From positions 310,001 through 374,000 of the forward strand of contig CDROCS010002077.1 of NCBI GenBank assembly GCA_977020255.1: a DNA stretch of 64,000 nucleotides, written 5' to 3'. Below, piece by piece: positions 19,986 to 42,031 of this stretch. Both the position numbers and the translations under genes were made by a program. This stretch comes from Obrimoposthia wandeli. Its lineage: Eukaryota. The notes below the pieces were generated by a model. The model had not been told where the DNA came from, did not search any database, and saw only the letters and a list, made by a program, of their open reading frames with translations. Within the stretch, counting starts at the first letter, position 1; the number at the start of each line of letters is the position of its first letter.

Positions 19986-19999
19986 ATATATTTGACACC

Positions 20000-20115
20000 A
20001 GTAGGTGGATGTGTCCGGTCTAATCCACACCCCCCTCCCCCATTGTCCTTTAAAACCGTGTAGGTGTGTGGAGTGAAATTTCGTGTAGGTGTGTGGAGTG
20101 AAATTTCGTGTATGT
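20000..20115 (+). repeat. Left terminal inverted repeat of Polinton 1
   Basis: Reverse complement of 35788-35888. The left copy has a tandem duplication of gtgtaggtgtgtggagtgaaatttc. Confidence 0.95.
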
Positions 20116-20881: not shown

Positions 20882-20956
20882 ATAAGATACAAATAAAACT
20901 GATTATTAAATGAAAGAAACATAGTAAAACCGATAACAATTTATTACACACAAAAG

Positions 20957-21433
20957 TTAAAACATAGAAATATGAGCACGTTCAATTTTCCACATAGGCA
21001 ACTTTGTTCCCATTTCATCTTTCTTGTAACCATAAAGTCGAATTGTTACAGTCCATTGCTTCTTTTTCGGAAACGCATCAATATCAACATATCTTCCATA
21101 GTCATCTAGAAATGCTTCATCGGCTCCTCAGATATAAAATTCGTTCTTATTGAAAGTAAAATTTGGAACTGCCTTTTCTATTTTCTGTTTAAAATATTGA
21201 AAATCAGATTTTTGAATACCTGATAGATAGTAGCTGAACTTTCTTCTTTCAATTGTCACAGAATTTACTAAAGCAATCAGTTGAGCCTTCTTCAAGAATC
21301 TGACTTTGTATTTGAAATATTGTTTCACTTCTTCATACATATCCTTATCCGATTCTTCAAACATTTCTTCGTCATCGCTTAATACCCGTTGGCTATCATC
21401 CATTGTTGATAATTGTCTTTGATATGAATGCAT
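20957..21433 (-). pseudogene. Uncharacterised Polinton protein, family X paralog B (one in-frame TGA at 21128-21130)
   Basis: Reading through the TGA continues in frame as GADEAFLDDYGRYVDIDAFPKKKQWTVTIRLYGYKKDEMGTKLPMWKIERAHISMF*. Confidence 0.7.
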
Positions 21434-21644
21434 TTACTGTGATTTGTCCTCCAATGGCACATTATTTTATACTAATTTCTAACAAAGACATGAATCTCAT
21501 TGGTTAATATAACTAAAGCATTGAATTTGATTGGACTAAATCTATATTAAAAATCAAAATTGATTGGAAGAAATATATCATCCAATTATAATAGGTTTGC
21601 AAGATAATTACAAGAAACGTGCAATAAAAAAGCAGGTTCAGACA

Positions 21645-21679
21645 TATATAAAGAAGATTTTACAGAATACAATTTCAGT
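21645..21679 (+). promoter_or_regulatory. TATA box (TATATAAAG) plus TCAGT initiator of the TBP-like gene
   Basis: TATA at 21645, TCAGT at 21675 (30 nt downstream) and ATG at 21683. ATTGG/CCAAT boxes lie at 21500-21590. Confidence 0.6.
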
Positions 21680-21682
21680 CTA

Positions 21683-22212
21683 ATGAAACTCGTAAATATA
21701 AATTATAAAGGTAGAACAGAAGATGATGTTTCGTACTTACCATTCAATGAATGGAAGCCGAGACAATATGTAGAAAAGTTTGACAATTTCACAGTTGTTA
21801 TTTTTCCTACAGGTTAGTTTTTTATTTTATTTTTATATTGAATTCTTTAGGAAATTGTCGTGTTATGGGATGCAAAATACCAATGCTTGGGTTCAATTTA
21901 CCATTTGGAATTCAAATCACTGCAATACAATCAATCACGATTTCGGCTAATCTCGGGAAACAGATAAATCTTTTTAAAACTGCAGAGAAAATGAAAGAAG
22001 AATGCATGTTTGAACCAGAAATTTTTCCTGCTTTCAGTTATTTGAAGTTTAAACCGCTATGTGTAAATATATTTTCCAGTGGTAAAGTTATGATATTGGG
22101 ATTGAAAAATTTTGATTATCCAGACATAGTTGATTTGATTTTAGAAAATATATCTTATTACATCTTGTTATCTTTTTTCTATAAACAAACCCCGTTTAAA
22201 CTTATTGTTTAA
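21683..22212 (+). CDS. TATA-binding-protein-like protein; two exons, 21683-21812 and 21851-22212
   Basis: The spliced product MKLVNINYKG...TVVIFPTGNCRVMGCK...IQSITISANLGKQINL...FEPEIFPAFSYLKFKPLCVNIFSSGKVMILGLK matches both TBP core repeats (TALIFSSGKMVCTGAK; YEPELFPGLIY..P..LLIF.SGKVVLTGAK). A 38-nt GT-AG intron restores the frame. Confidence 0.85.
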
Positions 22213-22486
22213 AATGAATAATACTATAAATAGAGACAATGAAGTGGATCGGCTTGCCGATGAAATATTTTCTGGAAAAATTAGGGGTAAAGAAATTTTA
22301 TCAGAATTAAAAAATAATGATATAACAAGAGATAACATTGAAATATTGGTTAGATCACACGTTATTCGAGAATTTAAAAATCGTACACAAATAAATAAAA
22401 TTATAGCCAAATATTCATTAATTAATTTTTGTATTACATCTACAATAGCTCTAACATTGTACATTTCAATAAGGAAACTTCTATGA
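22205..22486 (+). CDS. Small hypothetical protein with a C-terminal hydrophobic helix
   Basis: 93-aa ORF between the TBP-like gene and the ATPase, with C-terminal YSLINFCITSTIALTLYISI. Confidence 0.5.
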   Translation: MFKMNNTINRDNEVDRLADEIFSGKIRGKEILSELKNNDITRDNIEILVRSHVIREFKNRTQINKIIAKYSLINFCITSTIALTLYISIRKLL

Positions 22487-22523
22487 TAATATAAACAATA
22501 TTAAAAATGAAAGAGTATATGCA

Positions 22524-23171
22524 ATGGAGCTAAATAATAATGCTGTATTTCAAATAGTTGGCCCAAGTGGAAGTGGAAAGACACATTTCGTCTGTAAATT
22601 GTTGCAAAATGAATCTCTTTTCAAATCTAGTTTCAAAAATATTTATTGGCATCATGGTGGAGGAGGGGAAAGCGGGTTAACCAAAACAGAAGTTTGCAAG
22701 TTGAAGGGTATAAAATTTATTGAAGGATTTGATGCAAATTGGTGTGAAAGATTGAAAAAAGAAGATGTAATAATAATTGATGATTTGTATGAGGAGGCTA
22801 ACAAGGAATCGAACTTTAATAATTTATTTACAAAGATTGCAAGACATCGTGAAGTTACAGTTATATTTATCACTCAAAATCTGTTTCACCAAGGAGGTCA
22901 CCATAGAACAAGAAATCTTAATGTACATTACTTAGTTTTATTTAAAAATCCTAGAGATCAAACAGTTGTTGATTTTGTGGCCAGACAGGCATTTCCTCAA
23001 AATAAGAACTTTCTAGTTGATTCATTCCACGATGCTGCTAAACAAGCACATGAGTATATATTTATTGACTTTACACAAGCTTGTCCAGATGATTTACGTG
23101 TTTTAACAGACATATTTAATTCTAAGGGAATAACTGTTTATAAACAAATAGAGAACAATTATAAAAAATAA
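22524..23171 (+). CDS. A32/FtsK-like genome packaging ATPase (intact)
   Basis: Walker A GPSGSGKT, Walker B VIIIDD, and ITQNLF...RTRNLNVHYLVLFKNPRD. Confidence 0.93.
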   Translation: MELNNNAVFQIVGPSGSGKTHFVCKLLQNESLFKSSFKNIYWHHGGGGESGLTKTEVCKLKGIKFIEGFDANWCERLKKEDVIIIDDLYEEANKESNFNNLFTKIARHREVTVIFITQNLFHQGGHHRTRNLNVHYLVLFKNPRDQTVVDFVARQAFPQNKNFLVDSFHDAAKQAHEYIFIDFTQACPDDLRVLTDIFNSKGITVYKQIENNYKK

Positions 23172-23338
23172 ATTTACAAAGTTGATAGTAAAACGTAAAG
23201 TAAAATCTAAGAAATCAAAAAAAAGAATCATTAAGAAAAAAGAAGTGAAAAAATTAATCAAATCTGTAGTTAAAAATAAAAAAAAACTTAAATGGCTTCG
23301 AATATAAACAATATTTAAATTGAACCTTTTTTATTAAA

Positions 23339-23667
23339 ATGAAGAAAATACAAAGAAGCATACCCTATTTTAAAGCTTTAGTCAAAGCCTCTTCTAATAA
23401 GAGAATGATTATTCTTAAAGCATTTCCATCCTTTGTTGTAGATGATTTATTGGAAGTTTTATATAATATAGTTTTGGGTCGAGTAAAAGTTGGAAATCGG
23501 AAAAATATATTAAAGAAATATAGAAAAACTCTTCTAGATATTGCTAATGTAAAAGTAAAAAAAGGAAACGAAATATTATTCTTAAACAGAATGGTGGTTT
23601 CATAGGGGCTGTTATTCCAGTTGTTGCTTCAATTATCAGTAGTATTATAGCTGCGACAGGTTCATAA
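23339..23667 (+). pseudogene. Conserved small Polinton virion protein with a C-terminal Q.GG|F hydrophobic tail (frameshifted)
   Basis: SIPYFKAL...VVDDL...L plus a shifted tail, QNGGFIGAVIPVVASIISSIIAATGS*. Homologous to 59446-59856. Confidence 0.7.
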
Positions 23668-23695
23668 ACAATTATTTGTAAAATCAGCTAAAGAT

Positions 23696-23914
23696 ATGGG
23701 TGCTAGCCCTTCTTTACCTAAACTGAAATTTTCTTTCTATTCAAATTGTTGTAATGGAGAAGATATTGTTCAATCCAAAAGATTTAATTGGCTACACAGG
23801 AGTTTCAAAATTAGCAAAAAGAACAAAACAAAATTACAAGAAAACGCAGAAATGGCTGAGCGACCAGTTAGCCTACAGTCTGAACAAGCCGATGAGAAGA
23901 AGGTTTCCAACTAG
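23696..23914 (+). CDS. Small basic ORF overprinted on the integrase 5' end (MGASPS...CCNG)
   Basis: A homologous ORF sits at the same position in element 2 (59205-59378). Confidence 0.6.
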   Translation: MGASPSLPKLKFSFYSNCCNGEDIVQSKRFNWLHRSFKISKKNKTKLQENAEMAERPVSLQSEQADEKKVSN

Positions 23915-24781
23915 AGCTTACAAAACCAGCGGTCCTAATAATTTATGGCAAATGGTTTTGATGGAGATGATCCCATATTCTTCCATTAATAAGGGATATC
24001 GATATATTTTAACATGTATTGATGTATTTAGCAGGTTTGCTTGTGCAATTCCAGTTAAAGCAAAGTCTTCAATAGCTATGCTTGAAGCCATTAAAGAAAT
24101 ATTAAAAGAGGACATTCCACAAAATGTGCAAAGTGATTTAGGAAAAGAATTTTATAATAAGCAATTTCAGTCATTATTTAAACAAAATAATATAAATCAT
24201 TACTCTGTGTTTTCACAATACAAAGCAGCAGTAGTAGAAAGATTTAATCGTACTCTAAGAGATCGAATAAAAAAGTATTTCACAAAAGAAGGAAATAAAA
24301 AATGGATCCAAGTTTTACCTAAAATAATACGCATATAATCACTCTGAACATAGAGGTCTCAAGGGAATGAGACCTGTTGATGTTACTAATAAAAACTCTA
24401 TTGACATTTGGATGAACAGGAATAAAAAAGATAAAAATTAAAAAAGCTAAATATAAGAAAAACGAATATGTTCGAATTTCGAAAATTAGCTCTACTCCAT
24501 TTATTAAAAACTTTGATCAGAATTGGAGCGATGAAATATTTTGTATAAGTAAAATTGATCAAAAGAGTAATCCAATAATGTATACTATTAAAGATGCTGA
24601 CAATAATATCGTTCACGGTAAATTTTACGAGCAAGAACTACAAGTAATATCAAATAACCCTAGCGTTTTCTGTATTCAAAAAATATTAAAATCTAAGGGT
24701 ACAGGTAAACATAAACAATACTTTGTTAAATGGCATGGTTATTCAGACCCAACTTGGATATCAGTATCTAATATAATATGA
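23754..24781 (+). pseudogene. Retroviral-like (DDE) integrase with C-terminal chromodomain
   Basis: WQMVLMEM (first catalytic D changed to V), LTCIDVFSRF, QSDLGKEF, VVERFNRTL and YFVKWHGYSDPTWI. Several frameshifts. Confidence 0.92.
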
Positions 24782-25839
24782 ATTCTATGTATATGGTTTT
24801 ACCAAGTAACGGATGTCCGAAGACTCAACCAGATAATGACGCTAGTAGCTTTATTATCGATTGGGAAAATTCTATAAATCTCCAAGGAGAATGGAAAGCG
24901 GCTTTAACAGAATTTTCTTTTTATTATTCTCCAATTACTATCAAAAAAAACTCACATATTTCGTTTACAAAAGAAGTTTATCATGAAAAAACAACTGAAG
25001 TTGTGATCGGGTTTGATAGTAAAGGACAATTCTATTACAATTGTATAGATAAAGAAGTGAAAGTAATATTTGAAAATAACAAAGTCAGATTTAAAAATCG
25101 ATTAAAATTTCTTCAAATTATTAAAATTAATTTTGAATCTAAAAAAGAAGCTCTTCAATTCAGTTTTGATAGTGAACAAACAGTAGCTCGTAATAAACGG
25201 GATATAGTCTCATCTAAATCGGTTAGAAATATTCCTGGTAGAGTAGCAAAAGTGTTGTTACTTGAAACGAGACCAAAGACTGTAGTGAAACTGAAAAGGT
25301 TTTCAAAAGATTATAAATTAGATAGTGAAGTGAATTTCTGTAAATTAATACAGAAGGAATGTAGTGAATATTTTGATAAATGTGTAACATTAAAAAATGG
25401 TAAAATAACGTTTACAGTAAAGAGCAATATAATACGAGTTTTATTTGATGATAAACTCGCTAAAAACCTTGGTTTAAACAGTAATACCTTTGAAACCCAT
25501 ACAATAAAAACCATAAAAGCTAAAAATAAGGCAAAACTTTTAAATGCTGTTAATCATTTATATATTTATACTAATTTAATAGAACCAACGCTTGTAGGAG
25601 GACAGCGAGTTCCACTTTTGAGAACAATATGGATATCTAAAAATGAAACTAGAGATGGGGACACTGTCGGTATGTGTATAGATCAACCAATGTATCTTCC
25701 AGTTTCTCTCTTTTCTATAAACAATATTGAAGTAAATATTAGAGATGATTCCGGACAACTAATAGATTTCACGTACGGGGCCAAGACAAGTTTAACAATA
25801 CATTTAAGAAAACAAAATGGCGAATCCAGCAATAATTGA
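24778..25839 (+). CDS. Minor capsid protein (penton, single jelly-roll)
   Basis: N-terminal LPSN...N.AS.F.I.W.....L.GEW..ALTEF; C-terminal LYIYTNLIEP..VG....PLLR...YLPV....I.VNIRD..G. Confidence 0.85.
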   Translation: MNSMYMVLPSNGCPKTQPDNDASSFIIDWENSINLQGEWKAALTEFSFYYSPITIKKNSHISFTKEVYHEKTTEVVIGFDSKGQFYYNCIDKEVKVIFENNKVRFKNRLKFLQIIKINFESKKEALQFSFDSEQTVARNKRDIVSSKSVRNIPGRVAKVLLLETRPKTVVKLKRFSKDYKLDSEVNFCKLIQKECSEYFDKCVTLKNGKITFTVKSNIIRVLFDDKLAKNLGLNSNTFETHTIKTIKAKNKAKLLNAVNHLYIYTNLIEPTLVGGQRVPLLRTIWISKNETRDGDTVGMCIDQPMYLPVSLFSINNIEVNIRDDSGQLIDFTYGAKTSLTIHLRKQNGESSNN

Positions 25840-26194
25840 AGCTTATAGTCAAAGCCAACAAGGTGGAGAATTACCATATTTTGTTGGTAAACAATACGGA
25901 TCTGGCTGGCTTAGAACATTAGGTAGATTTGCCTTTCCTCTTTTAAAGAGACTCGGGCGATTTATATCAAAATTAGGAAAGGATTACCTTTCATCTAATG
26001 ACAATAAACTAATACCAACTTTTAAGAAGCATGCGCTTGATGAACTTGATAATGTTTTACCTGAAGTTGCTAATTTGATTAGAAAACGTAAATCAAATAA
26101 AAGCCAAGGAGGTAGTGGATATAAAAGTAAAAATAAGCTAAAAATTAATATAAACAAACGTAAGAAAGTTGAAGGAACAATATTTGCAAAATGA
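25817..26194 (+). CDS. Conserved small Polinton core/membrane-active protein
   Basis: YSQSQQGGELPYFVGKQYGSGWLRTLGRFAFPLLKR lies between penton and MCP; homolog at 56845-57246. Confidence 0.75.
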   Translation: MANPAIIEAYSQSQQGGELPYFVGKQYGSGWLRTLGRFAFPLLKRLGRFISKLGKDYLSSNDNKLIPTFKKHALDELDNVLPEVANLIRKRKSNKSQGGSGYKSKNKLKININKRKKVEGTIFAK

Positions 26195-27274
26195 GTTGCG
26201 CCAAAACTGAATTATGTATTTTTGATAAACCGCTTCCACAAGTAGTTGTAGATAATGCTTCCTTTGAAGAAATATTCCTTGTTAACTCAGTTTCAGGAAC
26301 CACTTTAACCGATTTAGAATTTAATATTAATGGTTCCAATAGCGAGTATTTAGATTTGAATGATACTTTGCTTTATGTTCAAATAAAAGTATTAAATCGG
26401 GATGGTACTAATTTAGATGAAAATGCTGATGTAACACCTGTAAATTATCTATTTAATTCTTTATTTAATGATGCCATTGTTACTCTTAATAATGTCAAAA
26501 TTGAAGGTGGAAATTCTTCCTATACTCATAAAGCTTTGATTGAAAGTCTTTTGAATTATAGTACTGATACTCAAAATACTAATTTGGCAACCATTGGTTA
26601 TGATAAAACTGATGCAACTCGCAAAGAATGGATTGCAGGTTCTAAAGCTTACGAAATGTGTGGGTCTTTGAGATTGAATTTCTTTGAACAACCGAAATAT
26701 TTAATTCCCGGTGTTAATGTACATCTTCGTTTGAAACGTAATAAATGGAATTTTTCTTTGATAAGCACGGACATTCTAAAACCTAGACTTGATATTTTGG
26801 ATGCAAAATTGTATGTTCGAAGAGTTAAAACCGAGCAATCAGTTTTAATGGCACATAATATAGGAATGGAAAAAAACAATGCTTGTTATCCTATTAGAGA
26901 AACTAAACTTATATCTTATTCTTTAGGTACGCGTTCACAAGCTTTTAATAAGGATCAAATTTTTGGTGATGTAAGATTTCGAAGGTAACGCTTATGCTTT
27001 GGCTTATACCCAATCTATTATTCGAAATTTGGGTCAACTAGATAAAAATATAAACAATAGTATTTCTTTCACTGACTTTAAAAACAGCTGCCCGTTCTTC
27101 ACATTTGTTTTGGCACCAGACTTTGATATAAACCAATGCCAACTACCAAAGGATGGAAATTTACGACTAGAAATTAAGTTCAATGCAGCTTTAACAAATC
27201 CTACTACGGTGCTTATTTACGGAGTATTTGATTCGGAAATACAAATCAATAAAAACAGAACTGTCATATTATAG
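26191..27274 (+). pseudogene. Major capsid protein (double jelly-roll), broken by an internal deletion
   Basis: KTELCIFD.P.PQVV, DLEF.I......YLDLNDTLLY, LFNSLF, FFEQPKYLIPGV and GNLRLEIKF. Relative to the intact copy at 55634-56848 it lacks roughly 45 aa after FGDVR. Confidence 0.9.
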
Positions 27275-27275
27275 A

Positions 27276-27656
27276 ATGGAGTAAGACATATTTTAAATTT
27301 ATATTTATTAATTTTTATTTAGTTCAAAACAAGTAAAAGAATCAGCAGAGAAGGTCCTGGGTGATAAATTCAATGGAGTTTATCCTATTGATATGATTCC
27401 ATTTTTTCAATCTGGAGGTTACATTATCAATACTCATACTTCGAATTTACCAGGAGAACATTGGATAGTTATATATGTTAGAGAGTGGACAATACATGTA
27501 TTTGATCCACTTGCAATGTATTATCCACACAAACTTGTTTCAACTATTCAAAAAGGACGAAGAAGAGTATTTTACAACAAGATACAATATAAGGATCCTG
27601 CGACGAGAAACTGTGGACATTTATGTATTTTATGGTTATCGTTACAAAACGATTAG
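27276..27656 (+). CDS. Adenain-like cysteine maturation protease; exons 27276-27280 and 27323-27656
   Basis: Spliced product MDSKQVKESAEKVLGDKFNGVYPID...IINT....PGEHW...FDP...NCGHLC carries the His/Asp/Cys triad. The oxyanion Gln position appears to be K. The intron is 42 nt. Confidence 0.88.
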
Positions 27657-27931
27657 TGTGTTATAAAAATAAAAATTTTAAATGTTTTATTTTGAATTAT
27701 TTTTTAAATCTCTAAAAATTTAAGGGTAAAATAATAAAAGACATAAGACAATTTTTTTAATACATTTATTAATCACAACATCACAATGAGATATGTCAGC
27801 AAAGATAAGGCATAATAAATAAGGTCCATCCTAAAAAAAGTATTGAAATAACAAATAAGTTAGAGTCTAGGTGCCATAGGGATCTAAAATTTTAAAAAAC
27901 TAAAATAAAAAAATAAAAAAATGAAAACCGT

Positions 27932-30900
27932 TTAAATTCTGAAGTGTCCATAAGCCAGGCTAGCGTTCTTTTCTACCCAAAAGCGCTTGTCGTCATTACT
28001 ACTCAACGCGATTTTGGTTGATTTATGGGAATACAGTTGATGGGCTCTTGAAATAAATCTAGTTTGCTCAACGCTTTCAATACACCCAGTATCATAAACT
28101 TTCCGGTAGGCCTCATGTGTAAGATTGTTTCTTCCCACACCCTTTGCTCTCATTGAACATGTATTATTAGATGCATGTAAACTGTAGCATTTAGGGCGTA
28201 GGAAAATACAATCATCATACGAAACCTGTCCCTCGATTTCATCCTTAAATTTCCCGATAATGTCCTTTAAACTCATAGAGTGTAGAGGATGGTTAACGGG
28301 ATATTTATGGGTATTTAGTAAGTTGTCCCTAAACATTGCTGGTAATAATTGATTATTTAAACTAACATTCCTACATTCTAAAAAGAAAGAGTCAGTGTCC
28401 CCAGCTGCGATTTTAATCTCACAATTAAATTCTTGTCGGTATTTCTCCAATTCTATGTATTGAAGCTCATACATTCTGAGTTTAGAAATGTCTAAAACCG
28501 TTTGACCTATATAACTCGGTCGATCGAGAAAAATACTCTGTTTTCCTAATAACACTGCTACCAAGTCATCTGCAATTGTAAAACTACGCTTGAAGTTGTA
28601 CTTGCTAGTATATGTTATTAGTTTACGCTCATCATTGCAAAACGTAGACAAATACGTTTCCGCAAGTCCTCTACAGTTTTTCCAAAGAGACTATTACTTT
28701 TTAACTTGTAAAAATCTCGATCGAATTTGCTAGTGGCCAAATTACGTTTTCTTGAATTCTTCTCAATATAGTCTTTAAACACAAAGTTTTGACTGAATCT
28801 TATAGCACGATGAATTCGAGTAACTTTCGCTCCCAACTTTAAGTAGAATTGAAGAAGCCGCCAATGCACAACATAATTCAACTTGTCTTCATGGGTTAAC
28901 AATAATTTCTTAACCTTTGAATTAGGTGGGCATTGATGAACAGGCGCTACTGGAAGATCATCTAATTTATCATGCACATTGGGAGGGATTTTTATGTACA
29001 CCTCAACCAAATAGCCGACGTCGGATGAAACTGTATCAACAGTAGCCAAATCTGTCATCAACTTATTCAACTGATCCACATCATAAACCTACTTAAAGTT
29101 GGCATGAGGTAGAGGTTGAGTAAGCGCCCACCCATACAAATTATTAATATCGATGTACAGAATCTCCGTGGATTGATTTTTGACAACATGATGTTTGTTG
29201 ACAAAAGTCATTCCACCGCGTATACCATAATCATACATTTGATACATCGCGGGATCTTGCAGTAACTTGATATTAATTTTAAGTGTTTTTAATGCTGTTA
29301 CCCATGAAAGACCAGGTAAACTAAAGAAATGCATGGGATCTAGCCCATCTTCTGCTAAAGACTTTACACGAAAGGACTCAAAAACATCAGCTAAAAGATA
29401 AATGTCTAACTTCATATAATAAAGCATATATTCTAAAAGATTTTGACAATTATTCACCCAAAATGTACGGGCCTCATTATAGTCTTGAAGACTTACACCC
29501 TCAAATTCAGTTATGGGTGGGATTTCAGTAGTATTTTCTAAATCTGCAAAGGTTTTCGCAAATTTATACGGAAAAATCCCCGTATCGTTAACCGAAGCTG
29601 GAAACACTGACTGTGTGATTGGCCATGCATTTAAAGATGCCGTTAAATGTTTTTTTAAAGACCCGCTAAAAACTGCAGAGAATCGATGAATCTTAAACTG
29701 CAGAATTCAGTATATGCAGTTAAAGATAAATATTTCTCTGAAGTTTGAGGTATACATGAAATTTCCCAAGAGCTTAATGTACCCAACACGTATTTAAGTA
29801 TATGATGCAAATCATATCCTTTGAGGTTATGAAACACGATGGGAATGCGTGGTTTTTTAGGGAGACGACGGCCAAGGTTACAAAGGTTGCACGCCGCTCC
29901 CAAGTATCGCCCCGTAACATGATCGTGATCTCTGACTAACTTAGACTGGGTTCCACACAAATAACATAATCTACAAGAATTAAAATTAACCCAGTCTATG
30001 CCTGTCATGATCATTGCTTGATGAGCATTGAGATCATACCACGGTTTGACAATTGTTGTTCCTAATTCCTCTAATTTTAACATAAAATCTAAAATACAAT
30101 TTGGATCGGAAAATTTATGATACTGGGTAATATTGGGGCCTAAGAATAGTAGTCCTGCCGAAGCCGGTAGGTGAATACTCTCATACTGGTCGTGCAATGC
30201 TAAAATTGACTCAAAATCTGCATACACCCTGAATTCCACGGGTATGCATTTTGCCCAATCCCTGAATTTTAAATCCTTATCCTTAGGCATGCTATATAGC
30301 GTATTGTCATCAGGATTTAGTGAGCATAATGTCAGATGTTTGCTGTAAGAGAGCTCGGATCGGAACCCATGCAAACATCTATGACACCACTTACACCTTA
30401 TCCTAACCGGTAAGGCTCCATTATCTAAATTTAAAAGACGATCTAAACTGGGAATTGCAGCATAATGGAATATATTATTATGTTCAAGCAAAATTAAGTT
30501 GACCTGAGTCCCTTCATTTTTGCTCCTATAAATTACATCTACAAAAGGATTTTTAAAAATTTCTTCATCTGTTACATTAACTGGGATATCAGTATTATAT
30601 TTGAATACATTAATACTCAAGTTATTAAGATGTTCAAATCTTGATATCGCAGTTAATTTAACAGGAAAATCTATTCCATGATACTGCAATTCATTTAAAA
30701 AAGGGGTATATTTACTGACACGCTCTCTATGCTCAGTAATTACATCCCTTTTGAGGATGGCCAACACGCTATACAGAAAGCAAAGGTTATCAATGTTTTG
30801 TACGTTAACAATGGAACGTGAAAGTTGAAGAGATCTAGGTGAAGGAATATATGAACTCCCCGAAAGATATATCATGTCAGTGAACTTTGTTAGAACAAAG

Positions 30901-31184
30901 CTAACATCGTGAATTTTAACTAGAGTCCATCCACTACTTAACTCGCTATAATTAGCAATTTTTTCATCAAGGTTTCTTCCAATTTCAGTTACAAAATTAT
31001 CATAAAAAACAGTTGCTTTATGTGAAAATACCCAAGTTTTAGTTTCCTCATTGACATTTTTAAACTGCACTGTTGCGCAAAATTGAACTTTAGCCTGTCC
31101 TAATTTAGTCACTTCTGATTTTAAAAGATTTTCAATATTTGAATCTACACCTACGTTTAATAAAATTTCATTTCCTAATGGCAC
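27932..31184 (-). pseudogene. Protein-primed family B DNA polymerase (pPolB) body, frameshifted into four or more pieces
   Basis: SGW..SGSSYIP, NIDNLCFLYSVL...HYAAI (vOTU-like), VYADFES, CYLC..DHDHVTGRY.GAAC..CNL (endonuclease VII-like), FHNLKGYD, IDSLQF, YIDINNLYG, KLKSNSLFGK, GDTDS, KCY and KGV. Confidence 0.95.
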
Positions 31185-31243
31185 CTTAACTATAACATAT
31201 TTATTATATAGGTGATACTCTATAGTAGCACCGTTTTCTCTAC

Positions 31244-32397
31244 CTTATTAAGAAATTGGCCTTGCCTCTTTCTTCCGTTTGTCGCTGACAAACCTCCCCC
31301 TAATTGAACGGGAAGACAACTATTTATATTAATAGTTGAGACAATCGCAGCTGAGGTTGAAGGTGCTGCTATTGGACATGCTGCCGATGTTGAGGCAATT
31401 GCAGCTGATGTGGAAGCTGCTGCTATTGTTGATGCTGCCGATGTTGAGGCAACTGTAGCTGATGTTGAAGGGACTGCTGACCTTTCCGATGAAGAAGCGG
31501 CTGTTGTAGAGGTTAGTGCTGCTGAAATATATTAAAAAATAAATATATTTTTAAAAATTATTACCTCTAAGACGTGCTAACATCGATGTAGGCACTCGCG
31601 ATGGTGGAGACATATCTGTTGTAGCAGATGACGATTGTAGAACGGTATTTCCTGATTAAATAATATAAATAAAATATATATATTAAAAATAAAATATATA
31701 ATTACAATTTACAAAAATAAAAAAATACCTAATGAAGGCAATCCAAGTTGAGCTGGAACGAAGTCCTCTTCATTGATGGAATCCATCCAGCTGTCGTCCG
31801 TTGACTCGATGAAATCGGATTCCTCGATGGTCTCCATACATGAGTTATCGCTCCACTGAGGCTGCTCCATCTCGAAATCTGACTGGGTGATATTTCGCAT
31901 CCAGTCATTGTTTGAGAATTGGGTTGCTGGTGCCAACTCCTCAAAATCTTCCTCGGAGATGTCATTCATCCACTCATTGTTAGACATTTGAGTGGATGGG
32001 GCAGCAGCAGAATCAGGAGCCGGGAGAGAAGGACCAATGGCAGGACCATAAACTGGTAGACTGACAGCCACTGTAAATGGAGGTGGAGCTCGAGCGGCCT
32101 GCGAATCGCGCACCAATTGGACGATATCCCTCTTCTTGTTGTTGGCCGTGAAACACGATAGGTGAGCTCGATGTTCACAGAAGAATTCTCGAAACTCCTT
32201 CTCCTCCATTGTTCTGCAGAAGGGGCAGACGAAGAACAGAACACCTTGAGACTTGGTCCGGTAGTATGCAGACATTGTCTCCATGCCGGACTCTCCTCCA
32301 TGCGGAGCCGAAGCACCGCAATACGCAGGGAATAGGTTACACGTAATCTGAAATAATAAATATTAATAAGGAAATAATAAAAATAAATTCTTACCAT
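31244..32397 (-). CDS. Spliced 5' extension of the pPolB gene; exons 32397-32395, 32347-31729, 31651-31565 and 31521 to about 31244
   Basis: Three GT-AG introns give one open frame. Its N-terminus aligns with the N-terminus of the intronless pPolB of element 2. Joining to the 31184 ORF needs a fourth intron or a frameshift. Confidence 0.7.
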
Positions 32398-32479
32398 AGG
32401 CATTATTTCAAATTGTCGGGGATTTAAATGAAGAAAGTGTTTGCTTATATACTAAAATTTATGCACGCATGCTCTTTTC

Positions 32480-32750
32480 CTATTGGATTAAAAAATTGAA
32501 TTTATTCCTCCACTGAGAAGGATTGTTTATCTGTTATTGGATGAAAAAATAATTTTATTCCTCCAATTAAAGAGAAGGATTGTTTATCTGTTATTGGATG
32601 AAAAAATAATTTTATTCCTCCAATTAAAGAGAAGGATTATTCATATATTATAGGTTGAAAAAATTTTTATTCCTCCAATCAAAAGGCTTATTTGTAAATA
32701 AATGTAAAATTTTAATAATGAATTCCTCCAATTAGAAGAATTGTTTATCT
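32480..32750. repeat. About five tandem 57-bp repeats with CCAAT/ATTGG boxes upstream of the spliced pPolB start
   Basis: The unit ttattcctccaattaaagagaaggattgtttatctgttattggatgaaaaaataatt recurs at 32502, 32555, 32612, 32667 and about 32720. Confidence 0.85.
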
Positions 32751-33254
32751 ACATGTCAAGTAATAATAAGAAAGACTTAAACATTTTTTATATGCGCAAT
32801 GGTCACCATGATTACGATATGGACAGCAAATATTTTGTGGAATATTTAATAGATGGTCACGTGAAATATTTAAAGTATTCAACCTCAATTTAGGAAAATA
32901 TTTTTTTAAAGTCTTATATCTTTTGCCATCCATGTCATCTAAAACATAAAAAATTCCATTTTCAATTTCAAAATTAGATTTAATAGTATCGAAAATACAT
33001 ATTTCACAAAAAGCCTTATGTCCTTCTTTCCATTTTAATAAATGGAAATATTTAGTTAGAGATAAATTAGTAAATTTTTTCTTATAATCTAAACTTTTAA
33101 ATGATATATCTATATGAAATATGAAATGCAAAGGATGAAAAACGTCGCATACATCCATAATACATAATTCTTTTATAATATAATCCCCATTTTTGTTAAT
33201 GAAAGCCTCAAAATCTATGATATATTCCTGCATAATTACCCAAATTTGTAGCAA
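32745..33254 (-). CDS. DEDD/DnaQ-like nuclease-fold protein (likely start 33233)
   Basis: IIDFEAF...YIIKELCI resembles ExoI (D-x-E); C-terminal CCPYRNHGDHCAYKKC. Homolog at 54754-55206. Confidence 0.6.
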   Translation of the reverse strand: MLQIWVIMQEYIIDFEAFINKNGDYIIKELCIMDVCDVFHPLHFIFHIDISFKSLDYKKKFTNLSLTKYFHLLKWKEGHKAFCEICIFDTIKSNFEIENGIFYVLDDMDGKRYKTLKKYFPKLRLNTLNISRDHLLNIPQNICCPYRNHGDHCAYKKCLSLSYYYLTCR

Positions 33255-33367
33255 ATCCCGTTGTTTATAACGAAAAACAATTAATCAAAAATTTATTAAA
33301 ATGACGAGGTAGTATTTAGACAATTTTATAACATAATCAATAAAGACAAAATAATAATCTATAAAAT

Positions 33368-33688
33368 TTATTTTTTTGTGGAAGGACCCTCTTCCGGTTT
33401 AATCTGGAGGATTCGCTTTCTTTCTGCTCGCCGAACATCCTCCGTCTCTTCTCTTCTTTTTTCCTCCGCCTTCCTTTTTTCCATTTCGATTTTCTTGTTC
33501 CACTCCACAACCCGACGTCGTTCTGCTAGCCGCCTGTCCTGAATCTCCACCCGACGATTCCACTCGGTCGCGACAGCAGTATATAAATTCTGGTTGAGGA
33601 TCCTCTTTCGTAAATCTCCTTTCTTCTCATTTAATCTTATATTTGCCTCGATCTTCGTCACCAAACTTTGCATTTTAATAAATTCCAT
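33368..33688 (-). CDS. Hypothetical charged coiled-coil protein
   Basis: 106-aa E/R/K-rich ORF with TATA-like and CCAATCA elements upstream (33720-33880). Confidence 0.55.
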   Translation of the reverse strand: MEFIKMQSLVTKIEANIRLNEKKGDLRKRILNQNLYTAVATEWNRRVEIQDRRLAERRRVVEWNKKIEMEKRKAEEKRREETEDVRRAERKRILQIKPEEGPSTKK

Positions 33689-33896
33689 TTTTTAATTATG
33701 AAGATGTTAATAAATTTGAACCTATATATATAAATTATATGTATATAAATTAAATATATTTTTAATCCAATCACAAGCAATTAAATCCCATTTATCAAAT
33801 GGAAGTTTAATAAATATATAACTAATCATTGCATTTATATTTAATCCTAAAAAATTTAATTATTCCTTAACAATCCAATCACATTCGAATAAGTTA

Positions 33897-34085
33897 ACTT
33901 TATTTTAATAAACTTACGGAGGATATTTTTAATATTACTAAATTCTAAAATTTATTTTTAACCTTGTTATTTTAATAAACTTAAGGAGGATATTTTAATA
34001 TTAAATTCTAAAATTTATTTTTAACCTTGTTATTTTAAAAAACTTAAGTAGTATATTTTAATATTACTAAATTCTAAAATAAATA
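33897..34085. repeat. Three tandem AT-rich repeats of about 62-67 bp
   Basis: The unit ttattttaataaactta..gaggatatttt.aatatt..taaattctaaaatttatttttaaccttg is repeated three times. Confidence 0.8.
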
Positions 34086-34109
34086 ATAATAAAAAGACAA
34101 CACAAGAAA

Positions 34110-35700
34110 CTAATGTTTATAAATTATATTTTTGAAAATCCTTACGAAGTCTTCATTGGGATCATCCGGGTCGTATTCCCTCCGACTTATTTTGATAGGA
34201 GAAAGCGGTACTGGTTCCTTCGTCTTTGGCCGGCCCGGTTTCTTTTTCGGCTTCACCGGTTGCTGTACAGCAATTGTCCTTCCCTCAGGTTTTGGCAATA
34301 GTTGCCGCAACTTTTTGGGAGGAGGTGCAGCCGATGTTGATGGCCTCGACATAGAAGCAGTAACCTTCCTCTTCCGCGGAGCTTTCTTCTGTTTCTCCTC
34401 TTTCTCACGCTGAAGCTGGCGTGAGACGGCATCCTGTTGCTCACGCTAATCTGGAAGCATTGCGGGTGTATCCAGTTCCGCCAGGAATTCATCCAAACCA
34501 AATAATTTACCTCGATGACTGGCAGATTAGCCTGTTTCACCAACTTGGCCTTCTTCCGATGGACCGTATTGGTTTTGATTCGATGACGTCGAGGTTTCTT
34601 AACTGCTGCTTGCTTCCTATCGACAGGTAGTCTCCGAGATGCCTCCTCCCAAATTTCCTCCACCAACTCAGCTTCCTAAGTGAATAATTAAATAAATTTA
34701 CTAATTTATAATGATATACCTCAATTTTAGCCGGAGTCGGTAGGTATCTCTGATCACTCCTGGGATCATCCTGGCTACATTGACTCGCCAAGTATTGCAG
34801 TTCAATTAGCCTCTCAATCGTGGTTACTGACGGTGCCAAATCCAGTTGCAGTTTCTGAAAATAAAATTAAAAATCATTTTAAATAAATGATTTCTAACCT
34901 CATTCGTCGCCTTTATTCTCCTATCGGAGATTGTGGCCTTCTGAATGGATCAGGCACTGTAATGTTGGGTATTGGAGTCGGAGTTGTATAGGGAGTGAGA
35001 CCATCCCATTCGTCAGTGAACAGATCCCACTCATCTTCATCCATTTCTGCAACCATGGACTCGTTGGCTCCTGGGGCTCCGATACTTGGCTGTATCCACT
35101 CCTCCTCCCCATCCGACGGAACGTCATCAGTAAAAAGCTCCTCGTCTGAGTCTGGTGTCAGTATTATCTCCGGTTGCCCACGCGAATCTGGAAGCATTGG
35201 GGGTGTATCCAGTTCCGCCAGGAATTCATCCAAACCAGCGTCATCCCAGGCCCTCTTCAAGTTTTGGCTGGTTGTTGGACGAGGAGAAGCAGTCTCCTGC
35301 AGGCGTTGTTGACTCGAGTGCGGACTTATCTCGATCGGCGAGACTGGGATCCTCTCATATAAAATAGGCCCGTCGTCCATTGGAGGAGGGAGAATCTCCT
35401 GCTGGCCAATCACCGCCTCAGAATAATGGCCAATTGAGGTTCGAATTTTTCTCGCGCGCCTCGTCTTCTTCACCTCTGCCCGCTTTGTCCTTTTCTTATG
35501 GAAAGGAGTAACTTCTCCTCAAGTCTCCTCAATTATCCGGACAGGTCCTGCAAATGAAAACAAAAATAAAATTTAAAATAAAATTTTATTTAAATAAAAA
35601 AAGCCTGTATTTATTACTCGTTGATCCACCGCGGGCCCGTAGGGCACGCTTTGGCCAATTTTTTGGCCTCTCAGGACCTTAATCAAAATTTTGGGAGCAT
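34110..35700 (-). pseudogene. Multi-exon gene for a low-complexity acidic/basic protein at the right end of Polinton 1
   Basis: GC-rich coding-like blocks are separated by 44-nt GT-AG introns (34898-34855 and 34719-34676; the exons flanking the latter are in frame). A few stops and frameshifts; the start is uncertain. Confidence 0.55.
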
Positions 35701-35787
35701 TATGAGATTTTTAAATTTACAGGGTGTTAAATGGAGTTAATTTTTTTTTTTGAGTGTTTGGGATGGGGAAGGGTAGAAAACGTTTCT

Positions 35788-35888
35788 ACACACTTACACG
35801 AAATTTCACTCCACACACATGCTCGGTTTTAAAGGACTGTAGGGGGGGGAGGGGGGTGTGTGGATTAGACCGGACACATCCACCTACT
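35788..35888 (-). repeat. Right terminal inverted repeat of Polinton 1
   Basis: Ends ...GATTAGACCGGACACATCCACCTACT, the reverse complement of the left end. Confidence 0.95.
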
Positions 35889-37129
35889 GACACTAATAAA
35901 TTATACACGCTTTTGCTGATTTGCAGAAATTAGTTTTTAGATTAAATCTTGTTGTTCTCTTCTCTTGTATTTGAATCAGTCCTCTAATTTCATGCTTGGT
36001 ATTTAACAGATGATTCATCATCATTGAGAATTCCTATTTTATTTTAAAATGACATATCACTTTCTTCAACATCGTTAAATTCAGTTGGATATTTTTTGGA
36101 ACATGTTGAGGCATTCGAGGACGTTGTAGATAGTGTCAATCCTGAAGATATCACTTGTGCGAGGGCAACATCTCAGAAGGTCATGCGCAAAGACAACATT
36201 AAACAAACTACTGCAACTGTATACAACAAAACTGTTAAGATTGTTGCATTCATCAATGAATTGATATTCTCAAAACAACTGGTACTAATGCAATTGCCGA
36301 TTTTACTAACAGAAAGATCAACTTTTGACGCTGAAATTGCAGTTAATCTGGACATAATATTAAACAAGAATCCAGGACTCAACTCTTTTACGTTTTGCAG
36401 GAAATAGCTGCAGAAGTTGAGGGAATATTTTATCTGAAGAGAACATTTTGACAGATGTAGTCTGGGCGAGGACAACCTCAAACAACTGGTCGGGTTGCTA
36501 CATAACAAGCCCCGGGTTAATTTTCTTTGTTATTTTAGTATAGTTTAGAATCAATTTTAATCATTTTGTTGTATAATTTGGAACCTTTTCTAGGTCTTAA
36601 AGTACTTATTTTCCGTATATGATACAGTTTTTGCTCGTATTCTCTTAGTGAACTTTTCTCGATTCTAAATTTAGAACATTTGGCAAAGGCCAAGTTTTGG
36701 AGGAAGTGGTCAAGTGGGACTGATAATGATTTTTAGCTGAAGTTGCTTCTGAAGAAATTAGTTGTACTTCACTGTGCAAATGTATTTTGGGTAGATTCTC
36801 AGCGTAGTATTACAACTTCTAAAATTCATCCATAGGGAGTTTTGAAAATGATTATATTTTTAGCTATTGTCCAAAGTATAATCTACAACTTTAAGAGCTG
36901 AATTACAGACATTAGCAGAAGTTATCTGTTTGAGGCCATCCGTAAGATTTAAAAAAATGTATTGGATCATAAAGTTGATATTTTGTAAATTCACCAATAA
37001 GAATAACTTAATACATTTAATGTATCACTACATCTAATAAATACACGATTTATTATTCAATATTGAATACATCTTTAATAATACATCCTAAATTCAATTT
37101 TGGCATCGATCGGCAGCAAAATGGGGATC

Positions 37130-37429: not shown

Positions 37430-38280
37430 GACAAAAATGGAAAAATAACAACATCATTTTCTGATTTATATAAAGTTTTTTTATCGACAATCACTATTAA
37501 TAGAAATTATGAAAATGACATCAAAAGCTAATTTATTTATCAAGAAGGCGACTTGGCAGTTTACAATTAATTTGTAATAGTTGAACACAAATTCAATGTT
37601 TCCACGACCACAGAAAAGCGCGTTAGATAATAATAGGTCTGCATCAAGTTTAAGTGACATTAACGGGAAAATTCTATTTGACCAGTTACAATCAGAAATA
37701 ACGTTAAAACTAGCATTGTTTTTCAACTAATATCTTCAACTAAAGTGTATATTACAAAATACTAAAATAGAAAAAATTAAGTTTGAGTTTTAACTAAGAA
37801 CTACTGTTAAAAGGCAAGAAGATAGTTCTATTTAAAATGCACTATATTCCGGATTGACTTAATAATTTAAATGTAAATGAATTCATTCTTAATGGTTTAT
37901 TTATTATTGGAATTGTATTATTTAAGATATTTAAATTGTTTTTAAAAAATATGGAATACTACTAAAACTTTATTTATATAGTTTATTAAAATAATTAATT
38001 AAAGACTAAAATGTGTATATGACAAGTACATGTGTTCTATTCCCTATTTCAAAAAACAGGTCAGAACTTTGATTTCTCGTGTTAATTTGTGATTCTCTGT
38101 CAAGATTGTGTATTTACATGAACTCTGTAAACAATTATGTAACTCATTTCTCTCTATTTCGTCCTGTCTCTATTTTCACTCTATAATCCCCGAAAATAAT
38201 ATCTGTCTTTTTGATATTTATTATTAGGCTATTTATGGATTCGGTTCCTCATATTTCTGCTGTTTACTGAAATTGTATAC
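37430..38280. repeat. Dispersed repeat of about 850 bp, copy 1
   Basis: Nearly identical by eye, in direct orientation, to 46480-47310. Confidence 0.9.
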
Positions 38281-38819
38281 TTAATTATAAATATAAATAA
38301 AATATATGCGAAAATTTATAAATTTCTGTAATATACTTTCTTTATTATTTGTAAAATGTATTAGCATTATATTTCGAATTTTGCCGATTGAAAAAAGTAC
38401 ATGAACGATTTTCAGTTCATTCTCGATTTTATTACTTATAAATTAATAAATCTATTATTTATTACCCATGCTCAAATTACATGAATTCTTCGATAAAATG
38501 TACTTGAAAGTACAAATTAACATTCAAATAAAAGTGACTCAGAAAAATTGCTGAATCACGTAAGGATGTGACTTTTGAATTGGCCAATTAGGATCAAATG
38601 TTGGTTGTGCACTTCTAAGTGCTTGGTTATTGATAAATGTGTCATTAATTGTGCTGGATTGTTTCGTGGAGTTGGCTGTATCAAAACTGCAGTCTGGTGT
38701 AATCAGCTAAGATTTAGGTGTGTGTTGATGTTAGCAAAAAATAAAATGTAAGTAATTTCGTTACCTGTGCGAGTCTACGTTGGACATCTGCATCCGGATG
38801 TTACTGAAGCGGTTGTAAA

Positions 38820-41800
38820 CAGTGGTGGGATTCAAGGGTTCGCACCGGTTCGCGCGAACCGGTTCCTAAAAATATAAAAGTTCGCAGAACCGCCTGAACC
38901 GGTTCCTGGACTACCTTCTTCGACTGAAACGTACATAATCATCTGGATAAAAAAGATATAATTTTTTAATTCGTTGATTGAACGCATTATTTATTCTTAT
39001 TTATTCTTATATTAATATTAATGGGAAAGTCAAAATTTCGAAACTATTATTAAAATTCAGCAAACATTTAACTACAATATATTAATATTTAAACATAAAA
39101 AAATCCGAGCACAGATTTTTTTCATGTATATATAATATGGTGAAATGAACCTTCTACATATAACAATGGTTCAACCGTTTAAGTAAAATTGATAAATATA
39201 TTTTAATGATAAATTATATCGAGTGTTTTACATGTAATTTGTAATGGGATATTATAATATGATACACTAAATATTAAATTTATCACATGATACTGTTATA
39301 TAATATATTATTTCTTCAACAGATTAGCTCAATAATAATTAAGAATCATTTAATTGTAGATTTATCACCCTGTAATGAAGCGACAGCATAGTATAGCTGA
39401 TTTTTTTTCAAAATCTCCAAAGACTGATGGAAAGGAAAACTCTGAACAAACAAATTTCGCATCAGGTTCAGCAAGCGATAATATTTCGAAACAAGCAACA
39501 TCATCCGAATATCTAACATTACAGAAAGAAACTTGTGATAAAACATCTGAAAATGCAAATCTGCAAGATAAAGAGTATGAAATTGTTAGGAATAATGATC
39601 TTCCTGATTGTTGGAATGTGAAATAAGCCGAGATGTTTAAGCAGAAATACGATTGTTTAGTTGTTATAAACAAGAAACTAGGGTGTGATTCATGTGCCAA
39701 ATTTGATGCTTTAACTGGAAAGGATATACACATATCTAAAGAATGGAAGAAATGTAACGTTGAAGGACACGGGAAAAATAAAGCCGTTGAGCAGGCGTCT
39801 CTTAGGAAAAAAATGAACGACCATTTTACATCTAAAGCACACAATTTATGCGTTATGCATCTGAAAGAACGCGAAAATGATGGTATTACCAAAGCTATTG
39901 ATAAAATAAATGAAAAATTTAATAGCTCTACAAACAAAGTATTCAATACAGTTTATAGTATAGTAAAACGAAATCTACCGTTTTCTGCCGTTGAAGATGA
40001 AATTGAATTACAAATCAAAAATGGCTTAGATATGGGAGTAGGACTTCATTCTCGAAAAACTGCTGTTAAAATAGTTGATCACATTGCGAAAGAGATCAAA
40101 ACAAAAGTATTTGCTAAAATAATTCAACAAAATTTAAAAATTTGTGTTATCATTGATGAAGCTTCCACTATATCTAACAAGCCAGTTTTGGTAATTTTTG
40201 TAAAAGTTGAAGATAGTGAATTTTCGCCAACAATTTTTGTAGATTTAGTTCAGTTGGAGGGTCAGGATGCAGAAACAATATACACTACTTTGTTGAATAG
40301 TTTGAATAATGTAGGCTTTGATGACGAATATTTAACAAACAATCTAATAGCATTTTGTTCCGACGGGGCAAGTGTAATGCTTGGCAAAGTATCTGGTGTT
40401 AGCGCCATAATTAAACAAGGTTTTCCAGATATTATCATTTGGCACTATTTGAATCATCGTTTGCAACTCGTTTTGGATGATTCTATCAAAGATATAAAAC
40501 AGGTGAATCACTTCAAAACATTTATTGATGAAATTTACAAGATATTTCACCAGTCAAATAAGAACCAAATGGAAATTTTCAAAATTTCCGAACAACTTGG
40601 AATAGAAATTCTAAAAATTGGTAGAGTTTTAGGACCGAGATGGGCTGCTTGCAGTCTTAGATCAACAGTTGCAGTATGGCGTGCTTACCCAGCATTATTT
40701 GATTATTTTAGTAGCAAAGAAAAGTTCACAGGAATGGCCAAGCGTTTTGCAAACAGATATTTCCTTGAGGATTTAGCTTTAATGATAGATATATTAAAGG
40801 AAATATCATTACTTTCAAATGCTCTACAATGTAGAAATTTAAATTTGCCACGAGCCGAAAAGTTAATAAAAAGGTCAATCAAGGCGCTAGAAATGATGAA
40901 AGAAATGAAAGGTTCTTATGAAACAAAAATTGACGAGACTGTTGCTTCTGATGCATTTCTTCATATTAAGTTTGTTCAAAATAAGAAATATATTAACCTT
41001 CCTCGCCAAAGCCTGTTAGATTCTATTATAAAAAATATGAAACTAAGATTGATGGATTCTGATGAAATAAAAGCAAGCAAAAACTCCAAAGAAATTGATA
41101 ACAAAATTCACTGTTTAGTAAACATCGTTAGCCTTGAATCATGGGATATTGATGAAGTTGTTGTACCGTGGAAACAAGCTGAAGAAAAATTACCCGGATT
41201 CTATAAGCAGTTTCACCATAAAATATGCGTTAACGATTTCCGTGACTATGTAGAAAATGTTATATAAAACCATCCCAAAGATGTTCCTTCTACAATACAA
41301 AAAGCAAAAAATATTATTAATACAATTGCTTTGAGTTCTGCTGAAGCGGAACGCGGATTTTCAGTTATGAATGTGATATATAGCGATAAAAGGAATCGTC
41401 TTGAAGTTCAAAATGTCGCAAATCTTATGGTAATAAAGTTAATTGGTCTTCCTCTTAATTTATGGGATTCTATGGATTCTGTTAAAACGTGGCTAAGAAA
41501 ACACCACACAGCTGATGATAAAAGAGTGAAGCATTAAAATATGCGTTAACGATTTCCGTGACTATGTAGAAAATGTTATATAAAACCATCCCAAAGATGT
41601 TCCTTCTACAATACAAAAAGCAAAAAATATTATTAATACAATTGCTTTGAGTTCTGCTGAAGCGGAACGCGGATTTTCAGTTATGAATGTGATATATAGC
41701 GATAAAAGGAATCGTCTTGAAGTTCAAAATGTCGCAAATCTTATGGTAATAAAGTTAATTGGTCTTCCTCTTAATTTATGGGATTCTATGGATTCTGTTA

Positions 41801-42031
41801 AAACGTGGCTAAGAAAACACCACACAGCTGATGATAAAAGAGTGAAGCATTCATCTAATAGTTCTTATAATTCTAATGAATTATCAATCTGGAAATATTT
41901 GGAATATGATGGTAAATAAAATGATTAATTGGACTTGTTTATTATTAACCACACACGGAAAAATTGATTTAATTCCACATCAACCGGTAAATGAGCGAAC
42001 CGGTTGCTAAACAGTTTGAATCCCATCACTG
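38820..42031 (+). mobile_element. hAT DNA transposon (ZNF862/KIAA1586-like transposase), 3,212 bp
   Basis: TIRs CAGTGGTGGGATTCAA / TTGAATCCCATCACTG with a perfect 8-bp TSD, GTTGTAAA (38812-38819 and 42032-42039). Confidence 0.95.
39375..41919 (+). pseudogene. hAT transposase with two in-frame TAA stops and a duplicated 3' segment
   Basis: IIDEASTIS, AFCSDGASVM, HYLNHRLQL, RW and SSAEAERGFS (dimerisation domain). ORFs 39375, 39633 and 41331 are in the same frame. Confidence 0.92.

Follow-up and report, generated by a model that had tools for sequence, protein, structure and literature searches.

In one of two Polinton/Maverick elements on a stretch of Obrimoposthia wandeli DNA, the protein-primed PolB (pPolB) very probably starts in small upstream exons that carry a Cys/His domain. 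The reading that we find reasonably likely as a whole is that of a spliced polyprotein, in which a Cys/His module is followed by a linker, a QxGG site with a basic patch, the terminal protein (TP), vOTU, exonuclease, and polymerase. The exon structure, the module family, and the place of the module before TP in relatives are established by sequence comparison.

Anatomy of the polymerase leader in element 1

The window (the whole stretch of 64,000 nucleotides that was analyzed) holds two Polinton/Maverick elements within AT-rich eukaryotic DNA, with a flanking exon of a rhodopsin-family receptor that points to an animal host; its right end cuts off element 2. Terminal inverted repeats, a Polinton criterion, were found on element 1; its right end begins with AG, the outer bases of its left end differ, and no clear 6-bp target-site duplication was seen. 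Its Pfam matches comprise an rve integrase with a chromodomain, in two ORF pieces (rve, E = 1.4e-11; Chromo, E = 2.3e-5, just under its cut-off), an A32-like packaging ATPase (Pox_A32, E = 6.4e-7), a TBP-like protein, and pieces of pPolB (PF03175, E = 2.8e-7 for an element 1 piece and 2.7e-21 for element 2). The capsid-type and protease genes of element 1 have no Pfam match; homologues of both stand in the same order in three metagenomic loci (L001, L003, and L004), and from motifs and gene order they are putatively MCP (double jelly-roll) and an adenain-like protease. Both elements are damaged: the capsid-type gene of element 1 is split, its pPolB gene is broken downstream of the leader by two frame changes and one in-frame stop, and the pPolB gene of element 2 likewise shifts frame, near 62620. 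The features on which the argument rests are as follows.

19999-35889, no strand: element 1, a Polinton/Maverick, with inverted repeats at 19999-20097 and 35785-35889
32490-32764, no strand: tandem repeats of 53-57 bp that precede exon 1 and in which an 11-nt motif occurs five times; candidate promoter or binding array
32395-32397, minus: exon 1, a lone ATG (donor ATG/GTAAGA); no further in-frame ATG before residue 23 of exon 2
32348-32394, minus: intron 1, 47 nt, phase 0, GC 13%, ATG/GTAAGA..TTTCAG
31729-32347, minus: exon 2, with the Cys/His module, a Pro-rich stretch, and acidic-aromatic repeats; 206 open codons, GC 50%
32120-32344, minus: Cys/His module of element 1, with C-x6-C-x5-H (no fourth Cys), MxxYY, FxCPxC-x10-F-x3-H-x2-HL, and FxxxKK
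31760-31972, minus: four acidic-aromatic repeats, [W/C]MxxIxxxDF; 76 residues with 23 D/E, 1 K/R, and 16 W/F/Y/L/M
31652-31728, minus: intron 2, 77 nt, phase 1, GC 6%; on retention the frame stops at 31709
31565-31651, minus: exon 3, a Ser/Thr-rich linker
31522-31564, minus: intron 3, 43 nt, phase 1, GC 7%
31244 (about)-31521, minus: exon 4, a Ser/Thr/Ala linker with 54-bp repeats, QLGGG, and RKRQ
31223-31244, minus: probable frame break, the sole stretch in which the leader and polymerase frames are both open; conserved TP sequence lies downstream
29655-31244, minus: pPolB part 1, with TP-like (from about residue 6), vOTU-like, exonuclease start, and endonuclease-VII-like zinc insert
27932-29706, minus: remainder of pPolB in three pieces (two frame changes, one in-frame stop)
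27276-27656, plus: adenain-like protease gene, with a 5-nt first exon, a 42-nt intron (27281-27322), and His/Asp/Cys motifs
61574-61810, plus: module of element 2, which opens pPolB; intronless, no Cys/His residue of the eight missing

The earlier note had proposed a lone-ATG exon and three GT-AG introns (47, 77, and 43 nt) that yield one frame, and this is borne out by GC content, intron phases, and open frames. The leader exons have a GC content of 46-50% versus 6-13% in the introns, and none of the 59-nt windows in the polymerase coding ORF is at 13% GC or below. With intron phases of 0, 1, and 1, every exon is open in the needed frame; the other frames of exons 2-4 contain 1-10 stops each. 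Introns 1-3 fit the U2 spliceosomal type in their GT-AG ends, their AT/pyrimidine-rich body, and the restored frame. The polymerase ORF of element 1 needs an upstream exon, because its first in-frame ATG is at 30875, inside TP. This, together with fusions and splices of the module to TP in relatives, also backs the claim that pPolB begins with the spliced ORF. We hold the anatomy of the spliced leader, as read from the sequence, with high confidence. The copies of the 11-nt motif upstream of exon 1 are tandem and hence not independent, and these repeats have no sequence counterpart in L001, L003, or element 2.

Micro first exons are a habit of the lineage, because the protease gene has one in four of the five elements checked: a first exon of 5 nt (ATG plus two bases) and an intron of 38-42 nt, at the same position. 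That position is shared by four divergent elements, so the intron is inherited. In the protease gene of element 2 (about 55259-55650, minus strand), the intron-like stretch is kept and there is no ATG there. The five elements are the two of the window and L001, L003, and L004; the gene with the 5-nt first exon overlaps or abuts the end of the capsid-type gene, and ORF callers give it no start.

Several further features of the window were recorded. A TBP-like protein is encoded in both elements (21784-22212, plus strand, Pfam TBP E = 3.6e-11, in element 1; 60986-61516, minus strand, in element 2). An ORF of about 155 residues, with a DxE start and a C-terminal Cys/His cluster, is kept in five elements (32745-33233 and 54754-55206, both on the minus strand, and L001, L003, and L004); it adjoins pPolB or the protease gene in all five, has no Pfam match, and by its motif alone resembles a DEDD-type nuclease. 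Inside element 1, the region 33700-35550 (minus strand) contains GC-rich acidic/basic ORF pieces with AT-rich GT-AG gaps between them, probably another spliced gene, and there is an internal duplication of 69 bp (34432-34500 and 35169-35237). Near-identical direct repeats of about 800 bp, 9 kb apart (37500-38303 and 46536-47343), flank a region with a receptor exon and a transposase-type ORF (39627-41919) that has no Pfam match and that we assume to be hAT-like. A long 30-bp minisatellite with strong strand skew occupies 13400-15500, and repeats of 99 bp and 21-62 bp lie at the probable left end of element 2 (53700-54130).

The Cys/His module and its relatives

Residues 1-75 of the element 1 leader align gap-free with the N-terminus of the element 2 pPolB (BLASTP, 45.1 bits, E = 3e-10), so the relatedness of the two N-termini that had been claimed from their pattern holds. 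Their local score of 97 compares with a mean of 26 and a maximum of 55 for shuffled sequences, 0 of 5,000 of which scored as high, and 41 is the score of the runner-up among the window's 543 ORF pieces. The upstream C-C-H-C site is missing its fourth Cys in element 1, whereas element 2 and most relatives have it. AlphaFold, which had been suggested as a check on the N-terminus, predicts a confident module (pLDDT 83.5, pTM 0.69) with a helix, then a hairpin bearing CPxC, and then a helix bearing the His pair. When 356 residues of element 2 were modelled, confidence was high for the module and for the domain after it (TP) but not for the linker; the topology of the model fits an alpha/beta and then an OTU-like domain. 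Conserved Cys and His motifs lie at about ORF residues 155 and 260. Judged from its sequence, the module is probably a zinc-binding two-site Cys/His domain, and we are fairly confident that zinc would be bound by a C-C-H-H core and an optional C-C-H-C site.

The module begins three of the five long homologues of the element 2 ORF, with two copies in P0001. A module profile of five rows matched 66 cluster representatives at E ≤ 0.001, of which 65 look genuine; P0073, with CxxC repeats and no His pair, was dropped as a probable false positive. The core CPxC..F...H..H, often after C-C-H-C, is found in 1-3 copies per protein: a regex count of units in 60 of the 66 proteins gave one copy in 42, two in 15, and three in 3. 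The upstream part is more variable. Among the 81 units counted, the full C-C-H-C is seen in 27 and a Trp-containing segment takes its place in 21, while 33 have neither, in which case the protein often starts at the core; P0003 and P0004 likewise begin without the upstream Cys site. The C-x6-C of the shared pattern in the earlier note thus does not belong to the universal core; the spacing of the upstream site varies as well. In a 35-row alignment the core C, C, F, H, and H are invariant, an invariance that is partly circular because the matches came from a profile holding these residues and the rows (short, mostly single-module) were chosen by us; the upstream C, C, and H are present in 26-27 rows, the others being mostly gaps. 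Where the protein is long enough, the module sits directly upstream of TP; this applies to the 12 matches that have TP in the same chain.

On the one hand, the ligand order of the core, C-x2-C...F...H-x-H, is that of classical C2H2 fingers and of A0A7D4VFN9. The latter, annotated C2H2-type and belonging to Drosophila-associated adintovirus 2, is what the 356-residue model matches best in fold among viral proteins (E = 1.5e-9); the top fold matches of this model are adintovirus/MELD proteins. Five module-bearing matches also carry classical C2H2 fingers, and zinc-finger leaders as such therefore have precedent. On the other hand, the spacing of the module, C-x2-C-x13/14-H-x1/2-H, differs from the C-x2,4-C-x12-H-x3,5-H of classical fingers (PF00096 clan), and the helix-hairpin and the optional C-C-H-C site are additions to it. 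No Pfam family, C2H2 families included, reached its cut-off among the 35 members; the best recurring match below cut-off was CpXC (4 of 35 members, E = 0.004). A PDB sequence search with the module gave 0 matches, and fold searches of PDB and BFVD gave none at E ≤ 0.001. ARS2 (Z 2.8, rmsd 4.0, 49 aligned) and SERRATE (Z 2.4) were rejected as fold matches, since such scores are not meaningful. As for the beta-beta-alpha fold of classical fingers, a hairpin plus helix is predicted, and Kaiso fingers surfaced only at E > 6. The ESM Atlas yielded no usable match to the module (best score, 0.84). A word-based search with the module alignment against 2,313 long-protein candidates found nothing, and is a weak test, as known positives (P0001 and P0003) exist; a scan of viral contigs with a single protein query found none, and two distant pPolB loci in viral contigs are both without the module. 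The leader marks out a small family of domains, with at least 65 clusters at 50% identity, to which the Pfam, PDB, and BFVD searches gave no name.

A metagenome scan yielded 41 loci, four of which have the module (L001, L003, L004, and L008); no match to it in the more distant pPolB loci scored convincingly. Two unrelated loci, L001 and L008, splice the module onto pPolB. The module and TP-vOTU-polymerase share one ORF in P0001, P0003, P0004, L003, and L004, and the element 2 gene is also intronless. In L001 the leader is in six exons without a stop, separated by five introns of 42-46 nt (GC 5-13%), one of them within the module, and the intron phases join the module to the polymerase ORF; this locus also has another in-frame ATG, where the last exon begins. 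L008 has one intron of 61 nt (GTAAGT..TTCAG, GC 34%, 74% pyrimidine) in matching phase. The positions of the leader introns differ among element 1, L001, and L008. At the protein level only, 10 of 33 short matches end in an aromatic read-through just past the module, which is the effect expected of an unspliced intron. Directly upstream of its module-bearing pPolB, L003 encodes a stand-alone module ORF (52-735, plus strand) with a coiled-coil-like tail and an acidic-hydrophobic end; the module can therefore exist apart from the polymerase. P0069 is a similar protein, with module and coiled-coil-like tail and without TP. In a quick tree, 17 module-bearing rows fall in one supported clade of 22 rows, whose other 5 mostly lack the N-terminus, and 3 in another; the module label is biased, as many rows were found via the module. 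Three proteins (P0015, P0042, and P0045) have the module fused to a more distant TP/vOTU type outside the main clade, a placement that suggests exchange of the module.

The junction with the terminal protein and the candidate protease site

At the junction between leader and TP, the earlier note had allowed a fourth intron or a frameshift; the frame does change, but the intron is not supported. A 59-nt intron before 31184, or another splice at the junction, would join leader and polymerase and leave the gene intact there, and GT and AG ends in compatible phase do exist, in a lineage that uses short introns. However, this segment has a coding-like GC content of 29% and 31% T, versus 6-13% and 53-62% in the three real introns, and 27% of the polymerase coding windows are as AT-rich. 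It also encodes the first TP strands, kept in 16 of 16 relatives: in element 2 its counterpart is the first two strands predicted for TP, and a profile of the 16 relatives, with element 1 left out, aligns it from residue 6, gaining 9.3 bits. Because 15 frame-compatible GT-AG pairs (all with GC 26-46%) lie near the junction, a compatible pair is expected by chance. The break resembles three more downstream in the same gene, and we regard a splice here as unlikely. A programmed ribosomal frameshift that determines how much leader-only product is made relative to full polymerase would fit the overlap of the two frames and the stop of the leader frame just past it, but the 22-nt overlap contains no canonical X XXY YYZ heptamer, and among the relatives compared at the DNA level (L001, L003, L004, and element 2) none changes frame here, the frame being either continuous or kept by splicing; this reading is very improbable. 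The junction is probably a frame break, due to decay or assembly error.

The linker, described before as low-complexity, is not only that: exon 2 contains the four acidic-aromatic repeats. Acidic-hydrophobic windows occur in 20 of 79 proteins, some of them inside TP, so the repeats are not a family trait. A basic patch is indeed present in both elements (RKRQ at 31273-31262 in element 1), whereas a GG motif is present in element 1 and absent from element 2. The adenain-type site VQLGGG↓L stands as a motif (VQLGGGL, with QLGGG at 31306-31292) but not in its register. Since P4 is Gln or Met across the family, the predicted cut falls one residue away, at QLGG↓G; either register agrees with the consensus. 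The sites of adenain (clan CE) are (M/I/L)xGG↓x and (M/I/L)xGx↓G, Gln being accepted at P4, and the enzyme cleaves adenovirus pTP at QRGF↓G, trimming its N-terminal part (PMC4246237); QLGGG fits this consensus, with (M/I/L/Q) at P4. Those of the mavirus protease are GG↓X and GX↓G (PMC6048507).

The motif [Q/M]xG(x)G, as we defined it after seeing the sequences, is present no more than 62 residues ahead of TP in 14 of the 24 relatives with enough upstream sequence (two rows were dropped as too short), near-duplicates being among the positives (P0003/4/6 and P0028/43), and occurs 0 times in 5,678 residues of the polymerase body. The other 10 relatives, element 2 among them, lack it. The order of GG motif, basic patch, and TP in element 1 is the same as in L003, L004, P0025, and P0042, and the distance from motif to TP, about 25 residues, compares with 9-50 in relatives; the linker of element 1 does not align with that of L003. 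QxGG/QxGxG motifs were also seen in small putative core ORFs of both elements (25817-26194, plus strand; 56845-57246 and 59446-59856, minus strand), and the linker of P0042 has four QxGG copies.

Given that 14 of 24 relatives have the motif and element 2 does not, it is plausible, though not as a universal trait, that the protease of an element cleaves the leader; for release of the leader at the putative site, we see the chances as evenly balanced. Less likely, yet with a substantial share of the probability, is that the leader is joined and never removed by the maturation protease, the Gly-rich motif being only a flexible hinge and vOTU cutting between TP and polymerase. The relatives without the motif agree with this, as does the published proposal for pPolB processing, which relies on vOTU (10.1101/2024.03.18.585575), but the motif keeps its P4 Gln/Met and its position although the linker is unalignable, and it recurs in putative core proteins. 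A different possibility, about as unlikely as a splice at the junction, is that the four-exon ORF is a stand-alone regulator, with module and acidic repeats, and pPolB has another start. The ORF has its own stop (31222-31220), L003 ORF1 and P0069 are module proteins without TP, and a split between TP and polymerase is known in a coral polinton (10.1101/2024.03.18.585575). Yet the last part of the ORF carries the GG motif and the basic patch, which directly precede TP in relatives, at a spacing within their range, and the L003 pPolB has its own second module, whereas the element 1 pPolB has none and no in-frame ATG before TP. Finally, the leader might be a built-in early transcription regulator: a zinc-module DNA-binding domain with activation-like acidic-aromatic repeats that would be made alone, by retention of intron 2, or fused to the polymerase and freed by the protease, and that would bind the tandem motif array upstream of its own exon 1. 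The stop right after the repeats upon intron-2 retention, the stand-alone paralogue of L003, and the five copies of the 11-nt motif fit this reading, which we nonetheless consider improbable because neither the acidic repeats nor the upstream motif is common to relatives. If this is true, a single spliced Polinton gene would tie together the dose of replication protein, the maturation of the virion, and the control of transcription.

Under the spliced-polyprotein reading, a pPolB transcript starting at the lone ATG would be spliced by the host spliceosome and yield one polyprotein. The module would fold independently of TP, with zinc held by both sites described above, and may serve as a nucleic-acid/chromatin-binding accessory domain that guides the polymerase precursor to element ends or promoters in the nucleus; nucleic-acid binding is a tentative proposal, a little short of even odds. 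In lineages with [Q/M]xG(x)G, the adenain-like protease would remove the leader at virion maturation, as adenain trims pTP; the cut would free module and linker, and the basic patch of element 1 would stay on TP. Separately, vOTU may cut TP from the polymerase, as proposed in 10.1101/2024.03.18.585575.

Comparison with known systems

The elements resemble Polinton/adintovirus elements in their rve integrase with chromodomain, A32-like ATPase, putative capsid-type and protease genes, and in a pPolB with a predicted alpha/beta domain, a predicted OTU-like domain, and then the PF03175 polymerase (PMC8502044; 10.1101/2024.03.18.585575). Unlike the pPolB described with N-terminal domains D1 and D2 in 10.1101/2024.03.18.585575, where neither "zinc" nor "intron" occurs, the proteins here have an extra folded Cys/His domain and linker before TP. 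Adintovirus PolB has an N-terminal OTU domain, and the Cys-rich "Oncoid" and "Ziftr" are separate genes (PMC8502044; 10.1101/2024.03.25.586562). Like adenovirus pTP, the leader-TP region has an N-terminal part before the priming domain and (M/I/L/Q)xGG↓x or xGx↓G sites (PMC4246237). Unlike in adenovirus, TP here stays fused to vOTU and polymerase, the cut site is only predicted, and the part that would be removed is a Cys/His module, for which no likeness to pTP was detected. Expression of adenovirus pTP is nuclear and spliced, as is proposed here.

Core genes of vertebrate and nematode Mavericks have been described as intronless (PMC8097293; 10.1101/2022.07.12.499685), and introners are reported from dinoflagellate polinton-like proviruses (PMC12166617). 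Spliceosomal-type introns are thus known in such elements, in cargo genes and as introner insertions, but here, unlike in the intronless Mavericks, short host-type introns are in core genes (the 5' part of pPolB and the protease gene). In the literature covered, which is incomplete, neither the module nor a spliced leader of pPolB is described, and no demonstrated substrate of a Polinton protease was found. What is new here, at the level of sequence, is an uncatalogued Cys/His leader domain and inherited micro-introns on a Polinton pPolB, with a candidate protease site.

Polinton polymerases are annotated from open reading frames, for which hidden 5' micro-exons matter: ORF callers truncate both pPolB and the protease in this lineage, because both 5' ends are hidden in micro-exons. 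The [Q/M]xG(x)G motif is a concrete candidate substrate for the Polinton protease, and by analogy it suggests that some Polintons may mature their terminal protein as adenoviruses do, besides the proposed vOTU cut. Inherited introns in core genes would also imply that active elements are transcribed in the nucleus by host machinery.
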